Shown: positions 3,681 through 63,358, numbered from the stretch's first letter. The stretch: DNA of 64,000 nucleotides from Dehalococcoidia bacterium (GCA_965197645.1 OZ240219.1:705157-769156); one strand, 5' to 3'. The notes: generated from the letters alone by a model not told the origin. Translations and numbers: made by a program.

Positions 3681-3767
3681 CCAGCCGCCCGTCCTCGGAC
3701 GTTATTGTGGCTGGAGGCACATCCCCCATACCCCCTGCCAGAGAGAAGGTTCCCTCTGGACTCCCTC
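3681..3767 (-). repeat. family B hairpin repeat copy (proB-proA spacer)
   Basis: The sequence ggcacatcccccataccccctgccagagagaaggttccctctggactccctc matches copies at 31061, 43480, 43705, 49886, 55952 and 60165. Confidence 0.8.
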
Positions 3768-5862: not shown

Positions 5863-7269
5863 ATGACTATGTATAAGAAGTTCATGAGGCGCCGCACCGT
5901 TCTGGGTATCGTCGCTGTAGTCTTGGCGTTGATGCTCGTGGCGGCCGCTTGCGGTGAGGAGGCTGCACCCGAGCCGACCGAGGAGGTCATGGAAGAAGTG
6001 ATGGAGGAGGAGGTCGAAGAGGTGATGGAAGAGGACGTGATGGAGGAGGAGGCGATGGAGGAAGAGATGGTAGAAGAGGTGATGGAAGAGGACGTGATGG
6101 AGGAGGAGATGGTCGAGGAGGTAATGGAAGAGGACGTCATGGAGGAGGAGCCGGGCGATGGGATGGTCGGACTGCGAGGTCCCGACGAGTGGACAGTCGA
6201 GAACCCGGCTACGTTGGAAGAGGTGGAAGCCGAGCTGGAGAAGCTCCGAGGCGGCAGCCTTGTGTTCGTATCCTGGGGCGGCGCCTACCAGAGCGCCCAG
6301 CGCCAGGCCTTCATCGTGCCCTTCGTAGAGAAATTCGGCATCGAGGTGATCGAAGAGAGCGTTCCGACGATCGCCAAGCAGCGGGCCATGGCCGAGACGG
6401 GCAACATCACCTGGCACGTCATCGACTGGGGTACCCCCGCCGTTTACCAGATGAGCGCCACCGGCCACCTGGAAGAGCTGGACTTCAGCATCATCGACAA
6501 CCGCAAGTACATGGAGATCATCAAGTGCCCCTACTGCGGAGGGGGAAGCATAACCTGGTCGGAAGTGCTGGCCTACAACACCGACACCTACCCCGACGGC
6601 CTGCCCGACATGTCGGCCTACTACGACACCGAGAGATACCCCGGCCGGCGGGGCTGGGCCTACTACAGCGATCCCGAGGAGGTCTTCGTCCTCCTGGGTG
6701 ACAACCCCTCGCTCCTTGATACCATGGAGGGTCGCTCCAGCCTCTCCCGGTTGAGCGACGAACAGTTGGACCGCGCGTACGAGCTGTTCGAGCAGTACGG
6801 GGACCAGGTAACCATGTTCTGGCAGACCGGTTCCGACTGTCCTCAGCTGCTTATCAGCGGCGAGCTGGACATGTGCACCGCCTGGAATGGACGGATCTAC
6901 GACGCCGCCAGGGAGGGCGCGCCGATAGCCATCTGCTGGCACTGCGGTCACAAGCTGAACACCGGCGTCTTCGTAGTCCCGGACGGGCTGGCGGAGCAGG
7001 ACCCGGACCAGATGTACCTGGTGAACCTCTTCATCGCCTGGGTCGGCTCCGGTAAGATCAACGCCGACAATGCCAAGTTCATCAGCTACGGCCCCGTCAA
7101 CCTGGACGGTCTTCCCTACCTGGACGACCCGGCCTTCGACGAGGTCCGGGACGAGCTCCCCTCGTCATCGTCCAACATCCCCTACGCCATCCTGACCGAC
7201 GAGAAGTGGGCGGGTGAGACGGGCGACGCTCGCTATGAGCGCTACCTGGAATGGCAGCAGAACCTGTAG
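5863..7269 (+). CDS. extracellular solute-binding lipoprotein (PotD/polyamine-type ABC SBP family) with Met/Glu repeat tether
   Basis: Signal peptide plus lipobox (LVAAAC), RBS AGGAGG, 57-aa E/V/M/D low-complexity segment, then an SBP body (VSWGGAYQ...CTAWNGRIYDA). Confidence 0.85.
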   Translation: MTMYKKFMRRRTVLGIVAVVLALMLVAAACGEEAAPEPTEEVMEEVMEEEVEEVMEEDVMEEEAMEEEMVEEVMEEDVMEEEMVEEVMEEDVMEEEPGDGMVGLRGPDEWTVENPATLEEVEAELEKLRGGSLVFVSWGGAYQSAQRQAFIVPFVEKFGIEVIEESVPTIAKQRAMAETGNITWHVIDWGTPAVYQMSATGHLEELDFSIIDNRKYMEIIKCPYCGGGSITWSEVLAYNTDTYPDGLPDMSAYYDTERYPGRRGWAYYSDPEEVFVLLGDNPSLLDTMEGRSSLSRLSDEQLDRAYELFEQYGDQVTMFWQTGSDCPQLLISGELDMCTAWNGRIYDAAREGAPIAICWHCGHKLNTGVFVVPDGLAEQDPDQMYLVNLFIAWVGSGKINADNAKFISYGPVNLDGLPYLDDPAFDEVRDELPSSSSNIPYAILTDEKWAGETGDARYERYLEWQQNL

Positions 7270-7613: not shown

Positions 7614-9020
7614 ATGACTACGTATAAGAAGTTCATGAGGCGCCGCACCGTTCTGGGTATCGTCGCTGTAGTCTTGGCGTTTATGCTCGTTGCGGCCGCT
7701 TGCGGTGAGGAGGCTGCACCCGAGCCGACCGAGGAGGTCATGGAAGAAGTGATGGAGGAGGAGGTCGAAGAGGTGATGGAAGAGGACGTCATGGAGGAGG
7801 AGGCGGTGGAGGAAGAGATGGTAGAAGAGGTGATGGAAGAGGACGTGATGGAGGAGGAGATGGTCGAGGAGGTAATGGAAGAGGACGTGATGGAGGAGGA
7901 GCCAGGCGATGGGATGGTCGGACTGCGTGGTCCTGACCAGTGGACGGTTGACAACCCGGCTACGTTGGAAGAGGTCGAAGCCGAGCTGGAGAAGTTCCGA
8001 GGCTCAAGCTTCGTCTTCGTATCCTGGGGTGGCGCCTACCAGGCGGCCCAGCGCCAGGCCTACATCGTTCCCTTTGAAGAGAAGTTCGGCATAGACGTGG
8101 TCGAAGAGAGCGTGCCCACGGCCGCCAAGATCAGGGCCATGGTGGAGACGAGCAACATCGAATGGCACGTCATTGACAACGGTACGGGCAGCGCCTTCCA
8201 GCTAGCCCTAACTGGAGACCTGGAGGAGCTGGACTTCAGCATCATTGACAACCGGGACTACCTGGATGTCCTGAAGGCTCCCTGGTTCGGTGGCGGCGGC
8301 ATCACCTGGTCCGAGGTGCTGGCCTACAACACCGAGACTTACCCCGACGGCTTAGGGGACGTCTCCGCCTTTTACGATGACGAAAGGTACCCGGGTCGCA
8401 GGGGCTGGGCTTACTACGGTGATATTGCGGAGAGGTTCGTTCTCCTAGCCCAGGACCCTTCACTTCTGGACACTGTGGAAGGCCGCGCCAGCCTATCGAG
8501 CCTGACCGACGAGCAGCTGGACCGCTCCTACGAGCTGTTCGAGCAGTACAAAGACCAGATAAGCCTCTTCTGGCAGACCGGCTCGGACTGTCCCCAGCTA
8601 CTGATCAGCGGTGAGCTAGACATGTGCACTGCTTGGAACGGACGGATCTACGACGCCGCCCAGGAAGGCGCCCCCATAGCCGTCTGCTGGCACTGTGGCC
8701 ACATCCTGAAGACCGACACCTGGTACATCCCCAGGGGCTTGGCCGAGCAGGCCCCTGATACCTTCTATCTGGCCCAGCTATTCTTGGCCTGGACCGGATC
8801 ACCGGGGATCAACGCCAATATATCCAAGTACATCAGCTACGGTCCCATCAACATTAAGGCCCTTCCCTACTTGGATGCCCCCGAGTTCGATGTGGTGAGG
8901 GATGAGTTGCCTTCGTCTGCTTCCAACATTCAGTACGCCATCCTGGCGGATGAGAGGTGGGGTGGGGACACCGCCGACCTTCGCTACGAGCGCTACCTGG
9001 AATGGCAGCAGAACCTGTAG
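7614..9020 (+). CDS. extracellular solute-binding lipoprotein, tandem paralogue of 5863..7269
   Basis: Same length (468 aa), same signal peptide, lipobox and Met/Glu repeat. Offset by exactly 1751 bp from copy 1. Confidence 0.85.
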   Translation: MTTYKKFMRRRTVLGIVAVVLAFMLVAAACGEEAAPEPTEEVMEEVMEEEVEEVMEEDVMEEEAVEEEMVEEVMEEDVMEEEMVEEVMEEDVMEEEPGDGMVGLRGPDQWTVDNPATLEEVEAELEKFRGSSFVFVSWGGAYQAAQRQAYIVPFEEKFGIDVVEESVPTAAKIRAMVETSNIEWHVIDNGTGSAFQLALTGDLEELDFSIIDNRDYLDVLKAPWFGGGGITWSEVLAYNTETYPDGLGDVSAFYDDERYPGRRGWAYYGDIAERFVLLAQDPSLLDTVEGRASLSSLTDEQLDRSYELFEQYKDQISLFWQTGSDCPQLLISGELDMCTAWNGRIYDAAQEGAPIAVCWHCGHILKTDTWYIPRGLAEQAPDTFYLAQLFLAWTGSPGINANISKYISYGPINIKALPYLDAPEFDVVRDELPSSASNIQYAILADERWGGDTADLRYERYLEWQQNL

Positions 9021-11168: not shown

Positions 11169-11207
11169 GATTGCCACGCCCCGACTATGTCGGGGCTCGC
11201 AATGACG
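11169..11207 (+). repeat. family A repeat core (single copy)
   Basis: The sequence gattgccacgccccgactatgtcggggctcgcaatgacg lies between the convergent propeller and mnmG genes. Confidence 0.85.
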
Positions 11208-26710: not shown

Positions 26711-26849
26711 GGGTGGGTCCTTCCTCCGCTTGGTCGGTCGATATGCCGAGCGTATCATACACTATGGTACGGCCTTGAAACCCGCGAGATAGCGTCTCCG
26801 CCAATGCTGTTAGGCTGACGGAGCATCGTGTGGGCAAAGTGGCGAACGC

Positions 26850-27300
26850 CCCCTCGCTCGCAACGACGGTAACCGTTAGACTGGGTCCGAACCTCCGTCA
26901 TTGCGAGCACCGACAAAGTCGGGGCGTGGCAATCCAACCCAAGTCTGGCGGTTGACTGGCAGAGGCGTGTACCCCACCCGCTCCAGATTGCTTCGCTCCC
27001 TTCATCCTCCCCCAGACCTACCCCCGCCTCGTTCGCAACGACGGCAACCGTTAGACTGGCTCCGTACCTCCGTCATTGCGAGCACCGACAAAGTCGGGGC
27101 GTGGCAATCCAACCCAAGTCTGGCGGTTGACTGGCAGAGGCGTGTACCCCACCCGCTCCAGATTGCTTCGCTCTATTCATCCTCCCCCAGACCTACCCCC
27201 CCCCGCTCGCAACGACGGCAACCGTTAGACTGGCTCCGTACCTCCGCCATTGCGAGCACCGACGAAGTCGGGGCGTGGCAATCTCAGGTTAGGCTTTCTC
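26850..27300 (-). repeat. family A composite repeat, 3 tandem units (period 175/174 bp)
   Basis: Cores cgtcattgcgagcaccgacaaagtcggggcgtggcaatc lie at 26896, 27071 and 27245. The inter-core sequence is also conserved. Confidence 0.9.
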
Positions 27301-31043: not shown

Positions 31044-31147
31044 TCAGAACTACTGTTTTGAGGGAGTCCAGAGGGAACCTTCCCTCTGGCAGGGGGCCTG
31101 GGGGACGTTCCCCCAGCAATAACACCTTCCGAGGGTGGGCGGTTGGG
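31044..31147 (+). repeat. family B hairpin repeat copy
   Basis: The sequence is tcagaac...gagggagtccagagggaaccttccctctggcagggggcctgggggacgttcccccagc...gagggtgggcgg. Confidence 0.85.
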
Positions 31148-32619: not shown

Positions 32620-33003
32620 GTGTCAATCGGGATTACACGTTGTGCCAGATGGAAAACTAGCATGGCAACGGGAAGGCCCGGAGTAGGCTATCCTCGGGGG
32701 CAAAAATACGATGGACTGGCAACAAGGCTGATCTCGTTCAGAAAGATGGGGATACGTCTCTTCGTAATTCCTCCCCGTTCTCCCAAGCTTAACGGCCATG
32801 TGGAAAGGGCCCTGCGCACCCACACGGAGGAGTTCTATGAGGTCTACGACGGCGACCTGGATATGGGCCCTCTCAACCAGGCCCTTCGGAACTGGGAGGA
32901 GGTCTACAATACCGTACGCCCTCACCAGTCCCTCGGCTACCTCACTCCCCTTCAGTTCCTACATCATCAATACAAGTCAAACAAAGGCCTCATGTGTCAC
33001 TGA
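32620..33003 (+). pseudogene. 5'-truncated transposase remnant (rve integrase-core C-terminus, IS481/IS3-like)
   Basis: The sequence IPPRSPKLNGHVERALRTHTEEFY...YNTVRPHQSLGYLTP is the C-terminal third of a DDE/rve transposase. No N-terminal part and no inverted repeat pair are present. GC is locally lower. Confidence 0.7.
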
Positions 33004-33690: not shown

Positions 33691-33860
33691 CTCTCAGACT
33701 CCCGGCAAAGGACCTTCACCCCCTCTCTCTTCTCTCATCTTATAGGTGCGGGGCCTCGCAGAGGGTTTGGGGGATGTGCCTCCGAAACACCAAAACGTCT
33801 CAGGGTGGGAGGGAGGGAGAAACTATCCCGGGGGGGGTGATTAGTGAGGACAAAAGGAAA

Positions 33861-34003
33861 GCCCCGAAGTCTTTTGGTCTAAGACCAACCCGATGGACTA
33901 AGTCGGGAACTTCGGGGCCCGGTGCCTGTTGGGCTTCCGTATACGGAACCCAAGGCATAGTCGTTTGCTAAATCCTTAGGTGCCGGCTACGTTACAAGCA
34001 CCT
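33861..34003. other. unassigned structured element (three-way junction plus two hairpins)
   Basis: 10-bp closing stem 33861-33870/33909-33918 encloses hairpins 33874-33888 and 33889-33907. Further hairpins lie at 33923-33955 and 33978-34003. No known RNA family was recognised. Confidence 0.3.
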
Positions 34004-34099
34004 CACTAGTCCGTTTATCATCTGTTTCCAATAGATCACCTCCTTTCTTAGTGTACCCAGAGATTACTACACAATTGAGCATGATGACAAGTACCACCT

Positions 34100-34270
34100 C
34101 GGTGGTTGCGAGCAGGGAGAGTTAGTCCAGGGGGTGGAAAGAAGCGAAGCAATCTGGGGTGGAGGGGTAGATGTCCCTGTCGGGAAGGAGGCCAGACCTT
34201 AATAGATTGCCACGCCCCGACTTTGTCGGGGCTCGCAATGACGAGGGGGTGTCGTTGCGAGCGAGGCAAT
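34100..34270 (+). repeat. family A unit plus truncated next unit, abutting the GIY-YIG gene
   Basis: The core lies at 34205-34243. It is followed by the short hairpin gctcgcaatgacg/gtcgttgcgagc and then gaggcaatc directly before the gene's stop codon. Confidence 0.85.
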
Positions 34271-34582
34271 CTAGTCCGCGGATGAATCCTGACCCAGCAG
34301 GTCAACGCTCATATCTCGCCAAGTTGGGTTCATGCCGTTTATCAAAGCCACTTTCTTTCGTCGTGGACCTGCCTTCAACAGCTTCTCACGAGAAATCGCA
34401 GCTTCGGCTGTTTCAGCCATTTCGTAATACACGAGGTGGTTCACGTTGTACTTCGACGTAAAGCCAGGCGAAAGCTTTTCTCTGTGTTCGTAAACACGCC
34501 GGGGCAGGTTGTTGGTCACACCGGTGTAGAGAACAGTGTGCCTGGGGTTGGTCATGATGTAAACGTAGAAAGCTCTGTCCAA
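34271..34582 (-). CDS. small stand-alone GIY-YIG nuclease family protein (UPF0213/COG2827-like, 103 aa)
   Basis: FYVYIMTN...LYTGVTNNLPRRVYEH...E..AI.REK matches the GIY-YIG motifs. TTG start follows AAGAGGA. Confidence 0.85.
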   Translation of the reverse strand: MDRAFYVYIMTNPRHTVLYTGVTNNLPRRVYEHREKLSPGFTSKYNVNHLVYYEMAETAEAAISREKLLKAGPRRKKVALINGMNPTWRDMSVDLLGQDSSAD

Positions 34583-34946
34583 GGTAATCCTCTTGAAACG
34601 AGGTTACGGACTCAGCCTAACCGTTGCCGTCGTTGCGAGCGTGGGGGGGAAGTCCTGAGGGAAGTGGCAGGGAGCGAAGCATTCTGGGGTGGAGGGGTAT
34701 ATGTCCCTGTCGGGAAAGAGGCCAGACCTTAGTAGATTGCCACGCCCCGACTTCATCGGGGCTCGCAATGACGAGGCTACGGACTCAGCCTAACTGTTGC
34801 CGTGGTTGCGAGCAGGGGGAGTTGGTCCTGGGGATGGCCGGGAGCGAAGCAATCTGGGGTGGAGGGGTATATGTCCCTGTCGGGAAAGAGGCCAGACCTT
34901 AATAGATTGCCACGCCCCGACTTTGTCGGGGCTCGCAATGACGAGG
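34583..34946 (+). repeat. family A composite repeat, 2 tandem units (period 170 bp)
   Basis: Cores lie at 34735-34773 and 34905-34943. The array begins in the loop module immediately upstream of the GIY-YIG start codon. Confidence 0.9.
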
Positions 34947-34989
34947 GCTGGGGGCCCGGTGTTCGAATGGGCCGGTTTGACAGGCAGCC

Positions 34990-36012
34990 CTAAAAGGCCA
35001 GGAGGCGGCGGGGGTTCTCGACGGTCATCTGATGTATGGCATCCTCGCTCACACCGGACTTTAGCAGCGCCGGGATGATCTCCTCGAAGAGCCGGCAGAT
35101 GTTACGGCTCTGATACCTCGATGGGTCCTGCTCGGTGCTCGGAGGCCGCATTTCGTAAAGCACTATGTCGTGGGAGAGCACCATCTGGGAAGCATATCCC
35201 ATGGCGACGAGGGCAGTTATTGTCCCCAGTCTCGCCGAGTCGCCCAGCTGTCCCAGGGAGTAGGCGAACATGTCAATCCCCACGTTGGCGCCCCGGTCCA
35301 TGATCTGGGCCAGATGCCTGATGTTGGAGGTGCCGTCGGCGTGGCCGATGATGCACCTCGAAGGGTCCGCCCCCTCGTCCAGCAGCACGTCCAGCTGGCG
35401 CATCCCGATGTTACAGATAGCCCAATCGTAGCTATCGGTGTGGGTGGTGATGGTGACGCCCAGCTTCCTCTGCACCCGTGCAGCGGCCCTGAACCCCTTT
35501 TCCTCCACCTTGGTGGGGCCAAGAGCGTAGGGGACCAGCTCGTCGCCCCAGGAGGGTGTCGGCCCGGCTATCACCAGCTGGGGGCCGGTGGCCAGCTTGA
35601 TGATGCCACACTTTGAACCGGTGCCCAAGGCGCCCTCGGTAATCTCCGTGGCGAAGAACTCCTCGACGGCGTCCAGGGGCCTGGCATGCCAGTAGTAGGG
35701 TATGCCCATGCTCTCGGTGTAGAAGCCGGTGGAGGAGACGATGTGGACCCCGCTGCGCCGGGATGCCTCGGTCAGGAGCCCCATGTAGCGGCCGCAGTCG
35801 GAAGTGGTGACGTCGACCAGGCAGGTGAGACCGTGTGCCTCTCTGGCGCCAGCCAACTCCTTCACCAGCTTTGCCAGCAGATCATCCTCGTCGTAGCTAC
35901 CCTGGATATCGACCTCGGCGCCCTGCCAGTTGAAGAAAAGGTGCTCATGGGGCAGAACTACGCCCAACTCGCCGGGGGAGATGTCTCCCAGCACCGTCCT
36001 CACTATGGACAT
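34990..36012 (-). CDS. phosphotriesterase-related (PTE/PHP family) amidohydrolase-fold protein
   Basis: Contains GVVLPHEHLF and downstream His/Asp ligands (HTD, GHAD, SHD). Confidence 0.85.
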   Translation of the reverse strand: MSIVRTVLGDISPGELGVVLPHEHLFFNWQGAEVDIQGSYDEDDLLAKLVKELAGAREAHGLTCLVDVTTSDCGRYMGLLTEASRRSGVHIVSSTGFYTESMGIPYYWHARPLDAVEEFFATEITEGALGTGSKCGIIKLATGPQLVIAGPTPSWGDELVPYALGPTKVEEKGFRAAARVQRKLGVTITTHTDSYDWAICNIGMRQLDVLLDEGADPSRCIIGHADGTSNIRHLAQIMDRGANVGIDMFAYSLGQLGDSARLGTITALVAMGYASQMVLSHDIVLYEMRPPSTEQDPSRYQSRNICRLFEEIIPALLKSGVSEDAIHQMTVENPRRLLAF

Positions 36013-43426: not shown

Positions 43427-43755
43427 GGTTGATTTACCCACCACCCGCCCTGGTACGTATTGTTTTTGGAGGCACATCCCCCACGCCCCCTGCCAGAGGC
43501 AGGGCGAGGCCCTGCACCCTTAACATGAGAGAAGATAGGGCAACATCTGAATCCGTGGTGTCGTCATTGCGAGACCCGACGAAGTCGGGGCGTGGCAATC
43601 TAACTGGGTATGGCCGTTGACCCCGGTAGAGTCGTATCCTCCTACCCGCCCTCTAGGTGTTTCTTCCCACCCGCCCGCCCTGGGACGTTTTGTTGGGGAT
43701 TGGGGGGCACATCCCCCACGCCCCCTGCCAGAGGGAAGCCCTCTGGACTCCTGGG
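43427..43755 (-). repeat. composite repeat block: family B, family A core (43562-43600), family B
   Basis: Two copies of ggcacatcccccacgccccctgccagagg flank cgtcattgcgagacccgacgaagtcggggcgtggcaatc. Confidence 0.8.
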
Positions 43756-49869: not shown

Positions 49870-49965
49870 CTCAGAACCCTCCTTTGAGGGAGTCCAGAGG
49901 GAAACTTCCCTTTGGCAGAGGGCCTGGGGGATGTTCCCCAGCTACAAAACCTTCCGGGGGAAGGG
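49870..49965 (+). repeat. family B hairpin repeat copy
   Basis: The sequence is tcagaac...gagggagtccagagggaaacttccctttggcagagggcctgggggatgttccccagc. Confidence 0.85.
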
Positions 49966-55639: not shown

Positions 55640-55915
55640 CAGTCGCGGCGACGGCAACAGTTAAACTGAGTCCGTACCCCCGTCATTGCGAGCCTCGGCC
55701 AAGCCGGGGCGTGGCAATCCAGCCACGTCTAGTCGGTGCCCGCCAGAGGCGTGTACCCCCACCACCCCAGATTGTTTCGCTCCCTTGCACTCCCCTCAGA
55801 ACCAACTCCCCTCGCTCGCAACGACGGCAACAGTTAGACCGAGTCCGTACCCCCCGTCATTGCGAGTCCCGACAACGTCGGGGCGTGGCAATCTAATTGC
55901 TTCGCTCCCGCCTGC
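55640..55915 (-). repeat. family A composite repeat, 2 tandem units (period 173 bp)
   Basis: Cores lie at 55681-55719 (hairpin variant cctcggccaagccgggg) and 55854-55892. Confidence 0.85.
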
Positions 55916-58375: not shown

Positions 58376-58532
58376 TGTCGTAAGTCCTTCCCGTCTAATA
58401 GCTGTGGTGGGGGACCCTGCCTAGGCTGATATCTTAACACGATCTGCCCTCATGTTCCCTATTCCCTCGGGTAAGACGGTATACTTACGGGGCCTGGCCA
58501 CAGCTACCCCAGGGAGACGAAGATGGTAGGGG

Positions 58533-59936: not shown

Positions 59937-60144
59937 GATTGCCACGCCCCGCCTTTGTCGGGGCTCGCAATGACATAGGTATGGATTCAATCTAACCCTG
60001 GGCGTCGTTGCGAGCGAGGGGAGTTAGTCCTAGGGGTTGAAGGGAGCGAAGCAATCTGGGGAGGAGGGGCATACGTCTCCGGTGGGCAATGACCAAACCT
60101 GGGTAGATTGCCACACCCCGACCTTGTCGGGGCTCGCAATGACG
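59937..60144 (+). repeat. family A repeat, 2 cores (period 169 bp)
   Basis: Cores lie at 59937-59974 and 60106-60144, with a complete unit between them. Confidence 0.85.
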
Positions 60145-60159
60145 GAGGGGGCGTATCCG

Positions 60160-60247
60160 GGGAGTCCGGAGGGCATCCCTCTGGCAGGGGGTGTGGGGGA
60201 TGTGCTCCCAATCTACAGAATAATCGTACCAGGGCGGGTGGGAGGGA
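60160..60247 (+). repeat. family B hairpin repeat copy
   Basis: The sequence is gagtccggagggcatccctctggcagggggtgtgggggatgtgctccc...agggcgggtgggaggg. Confidence 0.75.
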
Positions 60248-62914: not shown

Positions 62915-63335
62915 AAGCCTGGGCTGAGATTGCCACGCCCCGACTTTGTCGGGTCTCGTAATGACGAGGTGGTCGTTGCGAGCGAGGGGAGAGTTAGCCC
63001 TGGGGGGTGGAAGAGGGCGAAGCAATCTGGGTCGGAGGGGTATATGCCCCTGCCAGTCAACAGCCAGGCCTGGCTAGATTGCCACGCCCCGACTTCGTCG
63101 GGTCTCGCAATGACGAGGTGGTCGTTGCGAGCAACGGGGGAGGTCGTCTTGAGGGAGTCGAAGGGAGCGAAGCAATCTGGGCCGGGGGGGTATATGCCCC
63201 TGCCAGTCAACAGCCAGACCTGACTAGATTGCCACGCCCCGACTTCGTCGGGTCTCGCAATGACGAGGTGGTCGTTGCGAGCGATGGGAGAGTTAGCCCT
63301 GGGGGTGGAAGAGGGCGAAGCAATGTGGGCCGGAG
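62915..63335 (+). repeat. family A composite repeat, 3 tandem units, short-loop variant (period 148/150 bp)
   Basis: Cores lie at 62928, 63076 and 63226. Units are joined by the short hairpin ctcgcaatgacg-aggtg-gtcgttgcgag. Confidence 0.9.
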
Positions 63336-63358
63336 GAAGGGAAGGCACGCCTCATTTT

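Follow-up and report, generated by a model that had tools for sequence, protein, structure and literature searches.

A probable Ssn-family GIY-YIG nuclease gene among CGTC-tagged hairpin repeats in a Dehalococcoidia-like genome

In a 64,000-nucleotide stretch of DNA from a Dehalococcoidia bacterium (GCA_965197645.1 OZ240219.1:705157-769156; hereafter the window), a small GIY-YIG nuclease gene lies within an array of hairpin repeats, termed family A, that are dispersed over the stretch. Our analysis establishes the homology of this gene, the grammar of the repeats and an association between the two that extends across phyla. On these grounds, the open reading frame (ORF) very probably encodes a site-specific endonuclease of the Ssn family, which acts on single-stranded DNA (ssDNA), and the family A repeats would be its cognate CGTC-tagged, REP-like hairpins. 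The principle that such an enzyme is paired with hairpin repeats was already published in 2025, and what we describe is an Ssn with its cognate repeats in a Dehalococcoidia-like genome, with variant features of its own: a longer hairpin with an internal loop, regular tandem units of two hairpins each, and a partly eroded gene cassette. The initial annotation of the window had proposed that the small nuclease is the processing or mobilising partner of the repeats, or else homes into them. As regards the partnership of enzyme and repeat, this was an independent rediscovery of the published Ssn hypothesis.

SsnA of Neisseria meningitidis is a 94-amino-acid, single-domain GIY-YIG protein that binds CGTCATTCCCGCGMAVGCGGGAATCYRG solely as ssDNA and on one strand only, and that cuts a few nucleotides upstream of the CGTC-tagged NTS/SRM hairpin, while neither duplex DNA nor RNA of the same sequence is cut and the RNA is not bound either (Chenal et al. 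2025, PMC11893778). Binding depends critically on the C that follows the palindrome and cleavage on the three bases that precede it, and cutting is abolished in the mutants Y6A, Y17A and E64A (PMC11893778). Three further homologues were likewise found to cut only ssDNA, beside their own hairpin repeats. Among the SsnA homologues, defined by E<1e-10, 71% have at least one flanking motif and 42% have a motif on both sides, and of the genomes that carry more than 200 motifs, 81% also code for a homologue; in Neisseria, the enzyme reduces transformation by repeat-bearing DNA (PMC11893778). The text of that paper mentions neither Chloroflexota nor tandem arrays. Our literature search found no follow-up paper to it, and a literature search with the repeat sequence itself returned nothing relevant.

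The ORF that had been annotated on the minus strand in the gap between two repeat cores (34271-34582) proved to be intact, and its sole Pfam domain is GIY-YIG (PF01541, E=1.3e-14, residues 5-71). The product has 103 amino acids, or 97 if counted to an ancestral stop codon, its homologues being typically 95 amino acids long. The Ssn class is taken here as the single-domain GIY-YIG ssDNA nucleases of the CDD model cd10448 (GIY-YIG_unchar_3). In BLASTP, the window protein aligned without gaps over 90 residues to a 94-amino-acid ORF of N. gonorrhoeae, with 49% identity and 69% positives (E=6e-31). That ORF has Y6, Y17 and E64 and carries canonical NTS repeats on its flanks, and from its length, these residues and these repeats we infer that it is the SsnA orthologue. 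Residues Y8, Y19 and E66 of the window protein align with Y6, Y17 and E64 of SsnA, which are needed for cleavage, and Y8, Y19, R29, H33 and E66 are invariant in an alignment of 18 sequences that includes the Neisseria protein. Like SsnA, the window protein is thus a GIY-YIG domain of about 95 residues, with equal catalytic residues and no second domain. The family is very large and is spread over many phyla, with identities to the window protein of 55-65%. Searches of NCBIfam, PHROGs and PDB sequences with the window protein returned no match, and PADLOC returned none at E≤0.01; these collections therefore give the protein no curated name, no part in a defence system, no phage family and no solved structure. 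Within the window, there is no second copy or fragment of the gene. Two observations concern the gonococcal records. The ssnA orthologue in one of them (NZ_CP119140.1, 1881687-1883156; L085) is unannotated, and PLSDB holds two 2.17-Mb N. gonorrhoeae records (NZ_CP119140.1 and NZ_CP119142.1) that are evidently chromosomes labelled as plasmids.

The repeats were located by searching the whole window with the pattern GATTGCCACGCCCCGACNNNGTCGGGGCTCGCAATGACG, allowing at most 3 mismatches. This returned 15 matches to a 39-nt core, as opposed to none in 100 shuffled versions of the window. The pattern search confirmed the cores at 34205, 34735 and 34905, with spacings of 530 and 170 bp, that had first drawn attention to the gene. 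The initial count of 15 cores was also borne out, while the eight loci to which they had been assigned come to seven, or to eight if the core at 34205 is separated from those at 34735 and 34905. All seven loci are intergenic, each lies 3′ of at least one gene, and four are between convergent genes. Array periods of 170, 175 and 150 bp were determined with Tandem Repeats Finder in the window. The exact 39-nt core had two matches, both in Dehalococcoidia, in a one-genome-per-species collection that does not include the window's own genome. As a side observation, the arrays yield spurious ORFs of 50-140 amino acids on both strands (34106-34285, 34624-34902, 34797-35078 and similar), with peptides such as ...CHAPTSSGLAMT... 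and ...RSNLGWRG..., which gene callers may label as hypothetical proteins.

Read in the orientation of the gene, a repeat unit consists of a compact hairpin (type 1, the 39-nt core), a loop of about 48 nt, a long arm (type 2) and a linker of either about 28 nt or 5-8 nt. The long arm reads G-ATTGC-TTCGC, about 30 nt, GCTC-GCAAC-GACG in this orientation; on the plus strand it reads (C)GT(C/G)-GTTGC-GAGC, followed by a purine-rich insert of about 30 nt and GCGAA-GCAAT-C. The two ends of this arm repeat those of the compact hairpin in inverted form, and a unit accordingly carries one hairpin-type element on either strand, both with the CGTC tag pointing outward. Folded as ssDNA, the compact hairpin is predicted to reach -13 kcal/mol (z=-4.3), while the CGTC, 5′ of the stem, stays unpaired. 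For the whole unit, an alternative four-way structure was predicted, but with a z of only -1.7 to -1.9 it is marginal.

The window hairpin shares with NTS/SRM the 5′ CGTC tag, a palindrome starting with AT and the C after the palindrome. In contrast to NTS/SRM, it is 39 nt long with an internal loop, following the scheme ATTGC-GA[GC stem]GTG-GCAAT, and it occurs in regular 150-175-bp tandem units in which the compact hairpin is joined by a long arm on the opposite strand. Like the published Ssn systems, the gene is flanked by its own repeats, and these are numerous, intergenic and clustered; a further difference is the Dehalococcoidia-like (Chloroflexota) host. The repeats also fall in line with the CGTC-tagged REPs, which have a CGTC tag, a stem starting with an A-T pair and a head-to-head dimeric arrangement, and which include dRS3 of Neisseria (Di Nocera et al. 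2013, PMC3733652). Common to both groups, including dRS3 and RPE-4/RPE-6 of Rickettsia, are the terminal CGTC (or TGTC) tag, the A-T stem start, the prevalence of head-to-head dimers and the location downstream of genes, whereas the perfect 8-9-bp stems and 4-5-nt loops of the CGTC-tagged REPs are replaced in the window by two stem segments split by an internal loop. Di Nocera et al. concluded that these REPs have no dedicated transposase (PMC3733652); the role of a dedicated enzyme for them is now filled by Ssn.

The flanks of other copies of the gene, whose comparison had been suggested as a check on the partnership, turned out to be informative. We surveyed the 81 homologous genes closest to the window protein, from at least 10 phyla, including Chloroflexota, Cyanobacteria, Planctomycetota, Nitrospirota, candidate phyla radiation groups and others. 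At the first 20 genome loci, the same short motifs recurred on either side of the gene, at similar distances from it. A strict hairpin was then defined as GTC, a 4-nt stem starting with AT, its complement within 75 nt and a final C. By this definition, the hairpin density was 3.6 per kb beside the 81 genes and 0.23 per kb at more than 1 kb away, which amounts to a roughly 15-fold enrichment. A forward hairpin was present upstream of 50 genes, a reversed one downstream of 52, and both were present around 36, with an identical stem type on the two sides in 32 of these 36. The nearest upstream hairpin was forward in 53 of 66 cases, and the nearest downstream hairpin was reversed in 44 of 71. An unbiased count of 8-mers gave the same picture, GTCATTGC and AAGCAATC being enriched 50-60-fold upstream and GATTGCTT and GCAATGAC to the same extent downstream. 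When the flanks of all 81 genes were read, two classes emerged. In the first, GTCATTGCGAG...GAAGCAATC precedes the gene and its reverse complement follows it; in the second, GTCATTCTGAG...GAAGAATC or GTCATCCTGAG...GAAGGATC precedes the gene and is mirrored downstream. Hairpins with GCAAT, GAAT or GGAT stems and a conserved GA-rich internal loop dominate these flanks, and the variant stems (GAAT or GGAT for GCAAT) switch together on both sides of the gene. Stem type also went together with the kind of C-terminal tail that the protein carries (Fisher p=5e-5), a post hoc result uncorrected for phylogeny and hence suggestive only. Equivalent hairpins flank most of the 81 homologues. Together with the published properties of SsnA and NTS (PMC11893778), the homology of the protein and the grammar of the repeats, this association supports the proposal that the nuclease is the processing partner of the hairpin repeat. 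The conditions that had been named as refuting the proposal are also decided in its favour by the published survey, given the 81% of motif-rich genomes with a homologue (PMC11893778).

How the gene sits among the repeats became clear from a relative, locus L082, which has the same syntenic order of an epimerase gene, a phosphotriesterase-family gene, the nuclease gene and the same small RNA, and whose nuclease is 89% identical to that of the window. Its cassette consists of a compact 39-nt hairpin, a 38-nt leader, a gene running from TTG to TAG, 16 nt and a long arm, and two intact copies of it follow one another at a 472-bp period. The two gene copies (L082, 6058-6838) differ by 3 nt, and the array begins with the other half-unit than in the window. 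From this tandem duplication and the different starting half-unit it follows that turnover of the array has taken place at a fixed locus since the lineages diverged. The intact arrangement also places the gene in the loop position of a unit, between the inverted hairpin arms, and the idea that it replaces the 3′ two-thirds of a unit had to be given up. Compared with L082, the window lacks about 65 nt upstream of the gene, namely the 39-nt hairpin and most of the leader. The sequence at the two junctions is as initially described. On the 5′ side, the linker and cgtcgttgcgagc of the adjoining unit come within 16 nt of the start codon, this being all that is left of the leader; the deletion junction coincides with the upstream end of this leader remnant, and the 5′ hairpin of the cassette is absent. 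On the 3′ side, the long arm has been cut to a 21-nt short form, which matches the downstream element of most homologous loci in place and orientation and shares 1 nt with the stop codon, the 39-nt core following 8 nt further on. The ancestral TAG stop (codon 98, 34289-34291) is now CAG, and the reading frame continues for six residues (QDSSAD) beyond G97, at which the L082 copies end, before readthrough is halted by the TAG that overlaps the downstream element. From this comparison, the ancestral cassette can be reconstructed as a forward hairpin, a short leader, ssn and a reversed hairpin, set in the loop of one unit of a tandem array.

By analogy with SsnA, a mechanism can be proposed. A hairpin extruded in ssDNA during replication, repair or DNA uptake would be bound by the protein, which would recognise the base of the palindrome together with the C that immediately follows it and the GTC that immediately precedes it. 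The strand would then be nicked a few nucleotides 5′ of the CGTC tag, and duplex DNA and RNA would be left alone. With one outward-pointing tag on either strand of a unit, cleavage would be expected in the linkers that join neighbouring units, each strand being cut once. Candidate roles would be the restriction or processing of repeat-bearing ssDNA and the spread or turnover of the repeats.

Several observations weigh against this assignment. First, the window copy may be decaying, since it has lost its upstream hairpin and now ends at a different stop codon. Its frame is still open, its catalytic residues are retained, and the ratio of nonsynonymous to synonymous change (pN/pS) relative to L082 is 0.41, a value derived from only 22 substitutions. 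Second, the long arms on the opposite strand may not be substrates, because they start with GTTGC, which places a G-T pair at the first stem position, and because the long arm folded alone gives no convincing structure. Third, the orientation of the hairpins follows no fixed rule: at the N. gonorrhoeae locus the tags of the nearest repeats face the gene, opposite to most loci examined here, where outward-facing tags predominate. Fourth, the published motif, HGTCWYN(0-2)YYVSBRHN(0-5)WNVSBRGN(0-2)RNCYNB, has a single match in the window (58488-58519), which is unrelated to the repeats. This degenerate motif is a search heuristic derived from 29 genomes and not a definition (PMC11893778), and it misses the window repeats because their stems are longer and interrupted by the internal loop.

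If the nuclease cuts at the outward tags, the unit of hairpin, ssn and hairpin might be more than a target with its enzyme: it could be an autonomous element, similar to an insertion sequence or a homing element, that copies the cassette or the gene-less units. We regard this extension as possible but unlikely. The idea was also raised in the discussion of Chenal et al. 2025, who pointed out that the repeat-gene-repeat arrangement resembles an insertion sequence and drew the REP/RAYT analogy (PMC11893778). In line with it, inverted hairpins enclose the gene exactly, L082 has two tandem copies of the gene-bearing unit, and the co-variation of stem type and C-terminal tail is compatible with mobility. 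Moreover, two diverged copies in Smithella (L043) lose homology precisely at the GTC...GAC tags, and in Melioribacter a 473-bp cassette is found at 99% identity in two unrelated contexts of one assembly (L018 2924-3396 and L019 2924-3396). Across phyla, a cassette-sized stretch is 96% identical between an Izemoplasmatales and a Dehalococcoidales assembly (L051 1273-1628 and L053 1-357), and another is 86% identical between Tissierellia and Varibaculum (L039 922-1232 and L045 3008-3318). In both pairs the match is confined to the cassette, although in L053 the contig starts at the match and only the downstream flank is informative. These cross-phylum identities involve metagenome bins, and they reflect either recent horizontal transfer or mis-binning. 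No target-site duplication was visible at the Smithella, Melioribacter and cross-phylum cassettes that were compared. Also at variance with mobility, hydrolysis of DNA is the chemistry of GIY-YIG enzymes, which are not known to transfer strands, each strand presents just one of the inverted hairpins in a cleavable orientation, the window copy lacks one end, and the presence of the gene at the same locus in two relatives fits vertical inheritance. Classical homing via a double-strand break is unsupported, given that SsnA is inactive on duplex DNA, and the suggestion that the nuclease homes into the repeat thus found no direct support. The mobilising role is put forward as a hypothesis by Chenal et al. 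and by us alike.

In its most specific form, this idea would make the cassette a minimal mobile element of about 400-470 bp, with the 95-amino-acid GIY-YIG protein as its only product and the 150-175-bp units as non-autonomous derivatives, which we likewise hold to be doubtful. By eye, the 45-nt loop of the gene-less units showed no convincing similarity to the leader or trailer of the gene, which lends no support to an origin by internal deletion. Two observations belong here. The Melioribacter 473-bp cassette is bounded, outside the hairpins, by a perfect 18-bp terminal inverted repeat, CAATGCTGTCAGGTTAAG, without a target duplication, and this nuclease cassette may be riding inside another miniature element. 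The loci L010 and L015 proved to be duplicate contigs and do not count as two copies.

It is very improbable that the system works at the level of RNA, with transcribed hairpins acting as terminators, mRNA stabilisers or small RNAs and the protein acting on RNA. The position of the seven loci downstream of genes, often between convergent ones, is typical of REP-like elements thought to be active in transcripts (PMC3733652). However, RNA of equal sequence is neither a ligand nor a substrate of SsnA (PMC11893778), no Rfam family matched the repeats at gathering and E-value thresholds in the window or in nine related loci, and a secondary role as terminator, although possible, would leave the nuclease unexplained. 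Finally, a chance juxtaposition, in which an unrelated nuclease gene happened to land in one array of a repeat that occupies many intergenic regions, might be suspected from the single case in the window, where arrays cover about 3-4% of the 64 kb (estimated from array coordinates), but is refuted by the flank enrichment and 8-mer counts around most of 81 loci in many phyla and by the agreeing genome-wide survey (PMC11893778).

Among other known systems, REP/BIME or REPIN elements with RAYT are the closest functional parallel to the Ssn-hairpin pair. There too, a small gene lies between inverted copies of a hairpin repeat that fills the genome, the enzyme recognises ssDNA hairpins (as the window protein would, by homology), and the repeats cluster in mosaic arrays. 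The resemblance is one of function and not of membership: RAYT is a Y1/HUH enzyme of the IS200/IS605 type with a covalent tyrosine, while Ssn is a hydrolytic GIY-YIG enzyme of unrelated fold; the REP tag is GTAG, that of the window repeats CGTC; and Ssn is not known to carry out strand transfer. The intergenic mosaic elements of Neisseria were reportedly described by Parkhill et al. in 2000 as arrays of 50-150-bp units bounded by dRS3. If so, they resemble the window arrays in being tandem, intergenic and composed of units bounded by the hairpin motif of the nuclease, whereas the window units are more regular (150-175 bp), with a conserved linker and a pair of inverted hairpins in each. GIY-YIG homing endonucleases such as I-TevI and the T4 Seg proteins share the catalytic domain, the free-standing small gene and a behaviour like that of selfish elements. 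They differ in having a long C-terminal DNA-binding domain, in lying within introns or free-standing in phage or organelle genomes, and in cutting duplex DNA at a long asymmetric site, while the window protein is the catalytic domain alone and its homologue SsnA cuts ssDNA exclusively. An assignment to this group was ruled out by the lack of a second domain, the lack of a PHROG match and the chromosomal intergenic context.

The partnership of Ssn and hairpin thus reaches uncultured Chloroflexota, well past the proteobacterial symbionts in which it was characterised. Since the class of hairpins with an internal loop escapes the published search motif, the published motif counts are probably underestimates. 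Ssn-hairpin pairs are candidates for new cleavage specificities in ssDNA tools, and the tandem units, the discrete cassette boundaries and the near-identical cassettes in different phyla provide material for testing whether Ssn propagates repeats. A mobile cassette, if real, would be a GIY-YIG counterpart of IS200/IS605 with REPINs that moves between phyla. The features of the window are collected in Table 1.

Table 1. Coordinates of the nuclease gene, the family A repeats and a second dispersed repeat in the 64-kb window
Feature	Position	Strand	Basis or remark
ssn gene, single-domain GIY-YIG nuclease, 103 aa, TTG start	34271..34582	-	Pfam and alignment
Short 3′-flanking hairpin GTCGTTGCGAGCGAGGCAATC = GTC-GTTGC-GAGCGAG-GCAAT-C	34251..34271	+	Reversed relative to gene
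Gene-leader remnant with ribosome-binding region tttcaagaggattacc	34583..34598	-	Comparison with L082
Type-1 hairpin (39-nt core), CGTC-ATTGC-GA-GCCCCGAC-AAA-GTCGGGGC-GTG-GCAAT-C	34205..34243	-	Pattern search and ssDNA fold
Type-1 hairpin (39-nt core), gene-less unit 2	34735..34773	-	Pattern search
Type-1 hairpin (39-nt core), gene-less unit 1	34905..34943	-	Adjoins 3′ end of phosphotriesterase-family gene
Type-2 long arm	34101..34154	+	Strand opposite to cores
Type-2 long arm of unit 2	34628..34684	+	
Type-2 long arm of unit 1	34801..34854	+	
Conserved linker of about 28 nt cgaggttacggactcagcctaaccgttgc between outward-facing CGTC tags	34599..34627		Unit alignment
Second linker copy, between units 1 and 2	34774..34800		Unit alignment
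Array, 3 cores, period 175 bp	26802..27283	+	
Array, 3 cores, period 150 bp	62928..63336	-	Short-linker form
Two-core array	55681..55893	+	Between convergent genes
Two-core array	59937..60144	-	Between convergent genes
Solitary 39-nt core	11169..11207	-	
Solitary 39-nt core	43562..43600	+	
GGCAGGGGGCGTGGGGGATGTGCC repeat, copies	3716-3739, 31088-31111, 43471-43494, 43706-43729, 49914-49937, 60183-60206		Degenerate near 33700-33800

The surroundings of the array hold a few further features. The Rfam family Ms_IGR-5 (RF02471), an actinobacterial small RNA that is unexpected in a Chloroflexota-like genome, matches at 33853-34054 on the minus strand with 51.3 bits (gathering threshold 45). The match adjoins the repeat array and is kept at the same position in L082 (about 7040-7245); a strong Shine-Dalgarno-like AAGGAGGTGATC stands at its start, and it may contain an ORF of 14 codons. 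A second dispersed repeat consists of GGCAGGGGGCGTGGGGGATGTGCC followed by a G-rich tail. Six copies with at most 3 mismatches are present, where 0.02 are expected, and several of them directly adjoin family A hairpins. About 1.1 kb from the array, a 127-amino-acid ORF on the plus strand (32620-33003) contains a fragment of an integrase core (Pfam rve_3 in the annotation of locus L081) and is probably the remnant of an insertion sequence. Elsewhere in the window, two adjacent ORFs of 468 amino acids on the plus strand (5863-7269 and 7614-9020) carry the same acidic tandem repeat (periods 15, 42 and 57 nt; rich in Glu, Val and Met), which looks like a recent tandem gene duplication.

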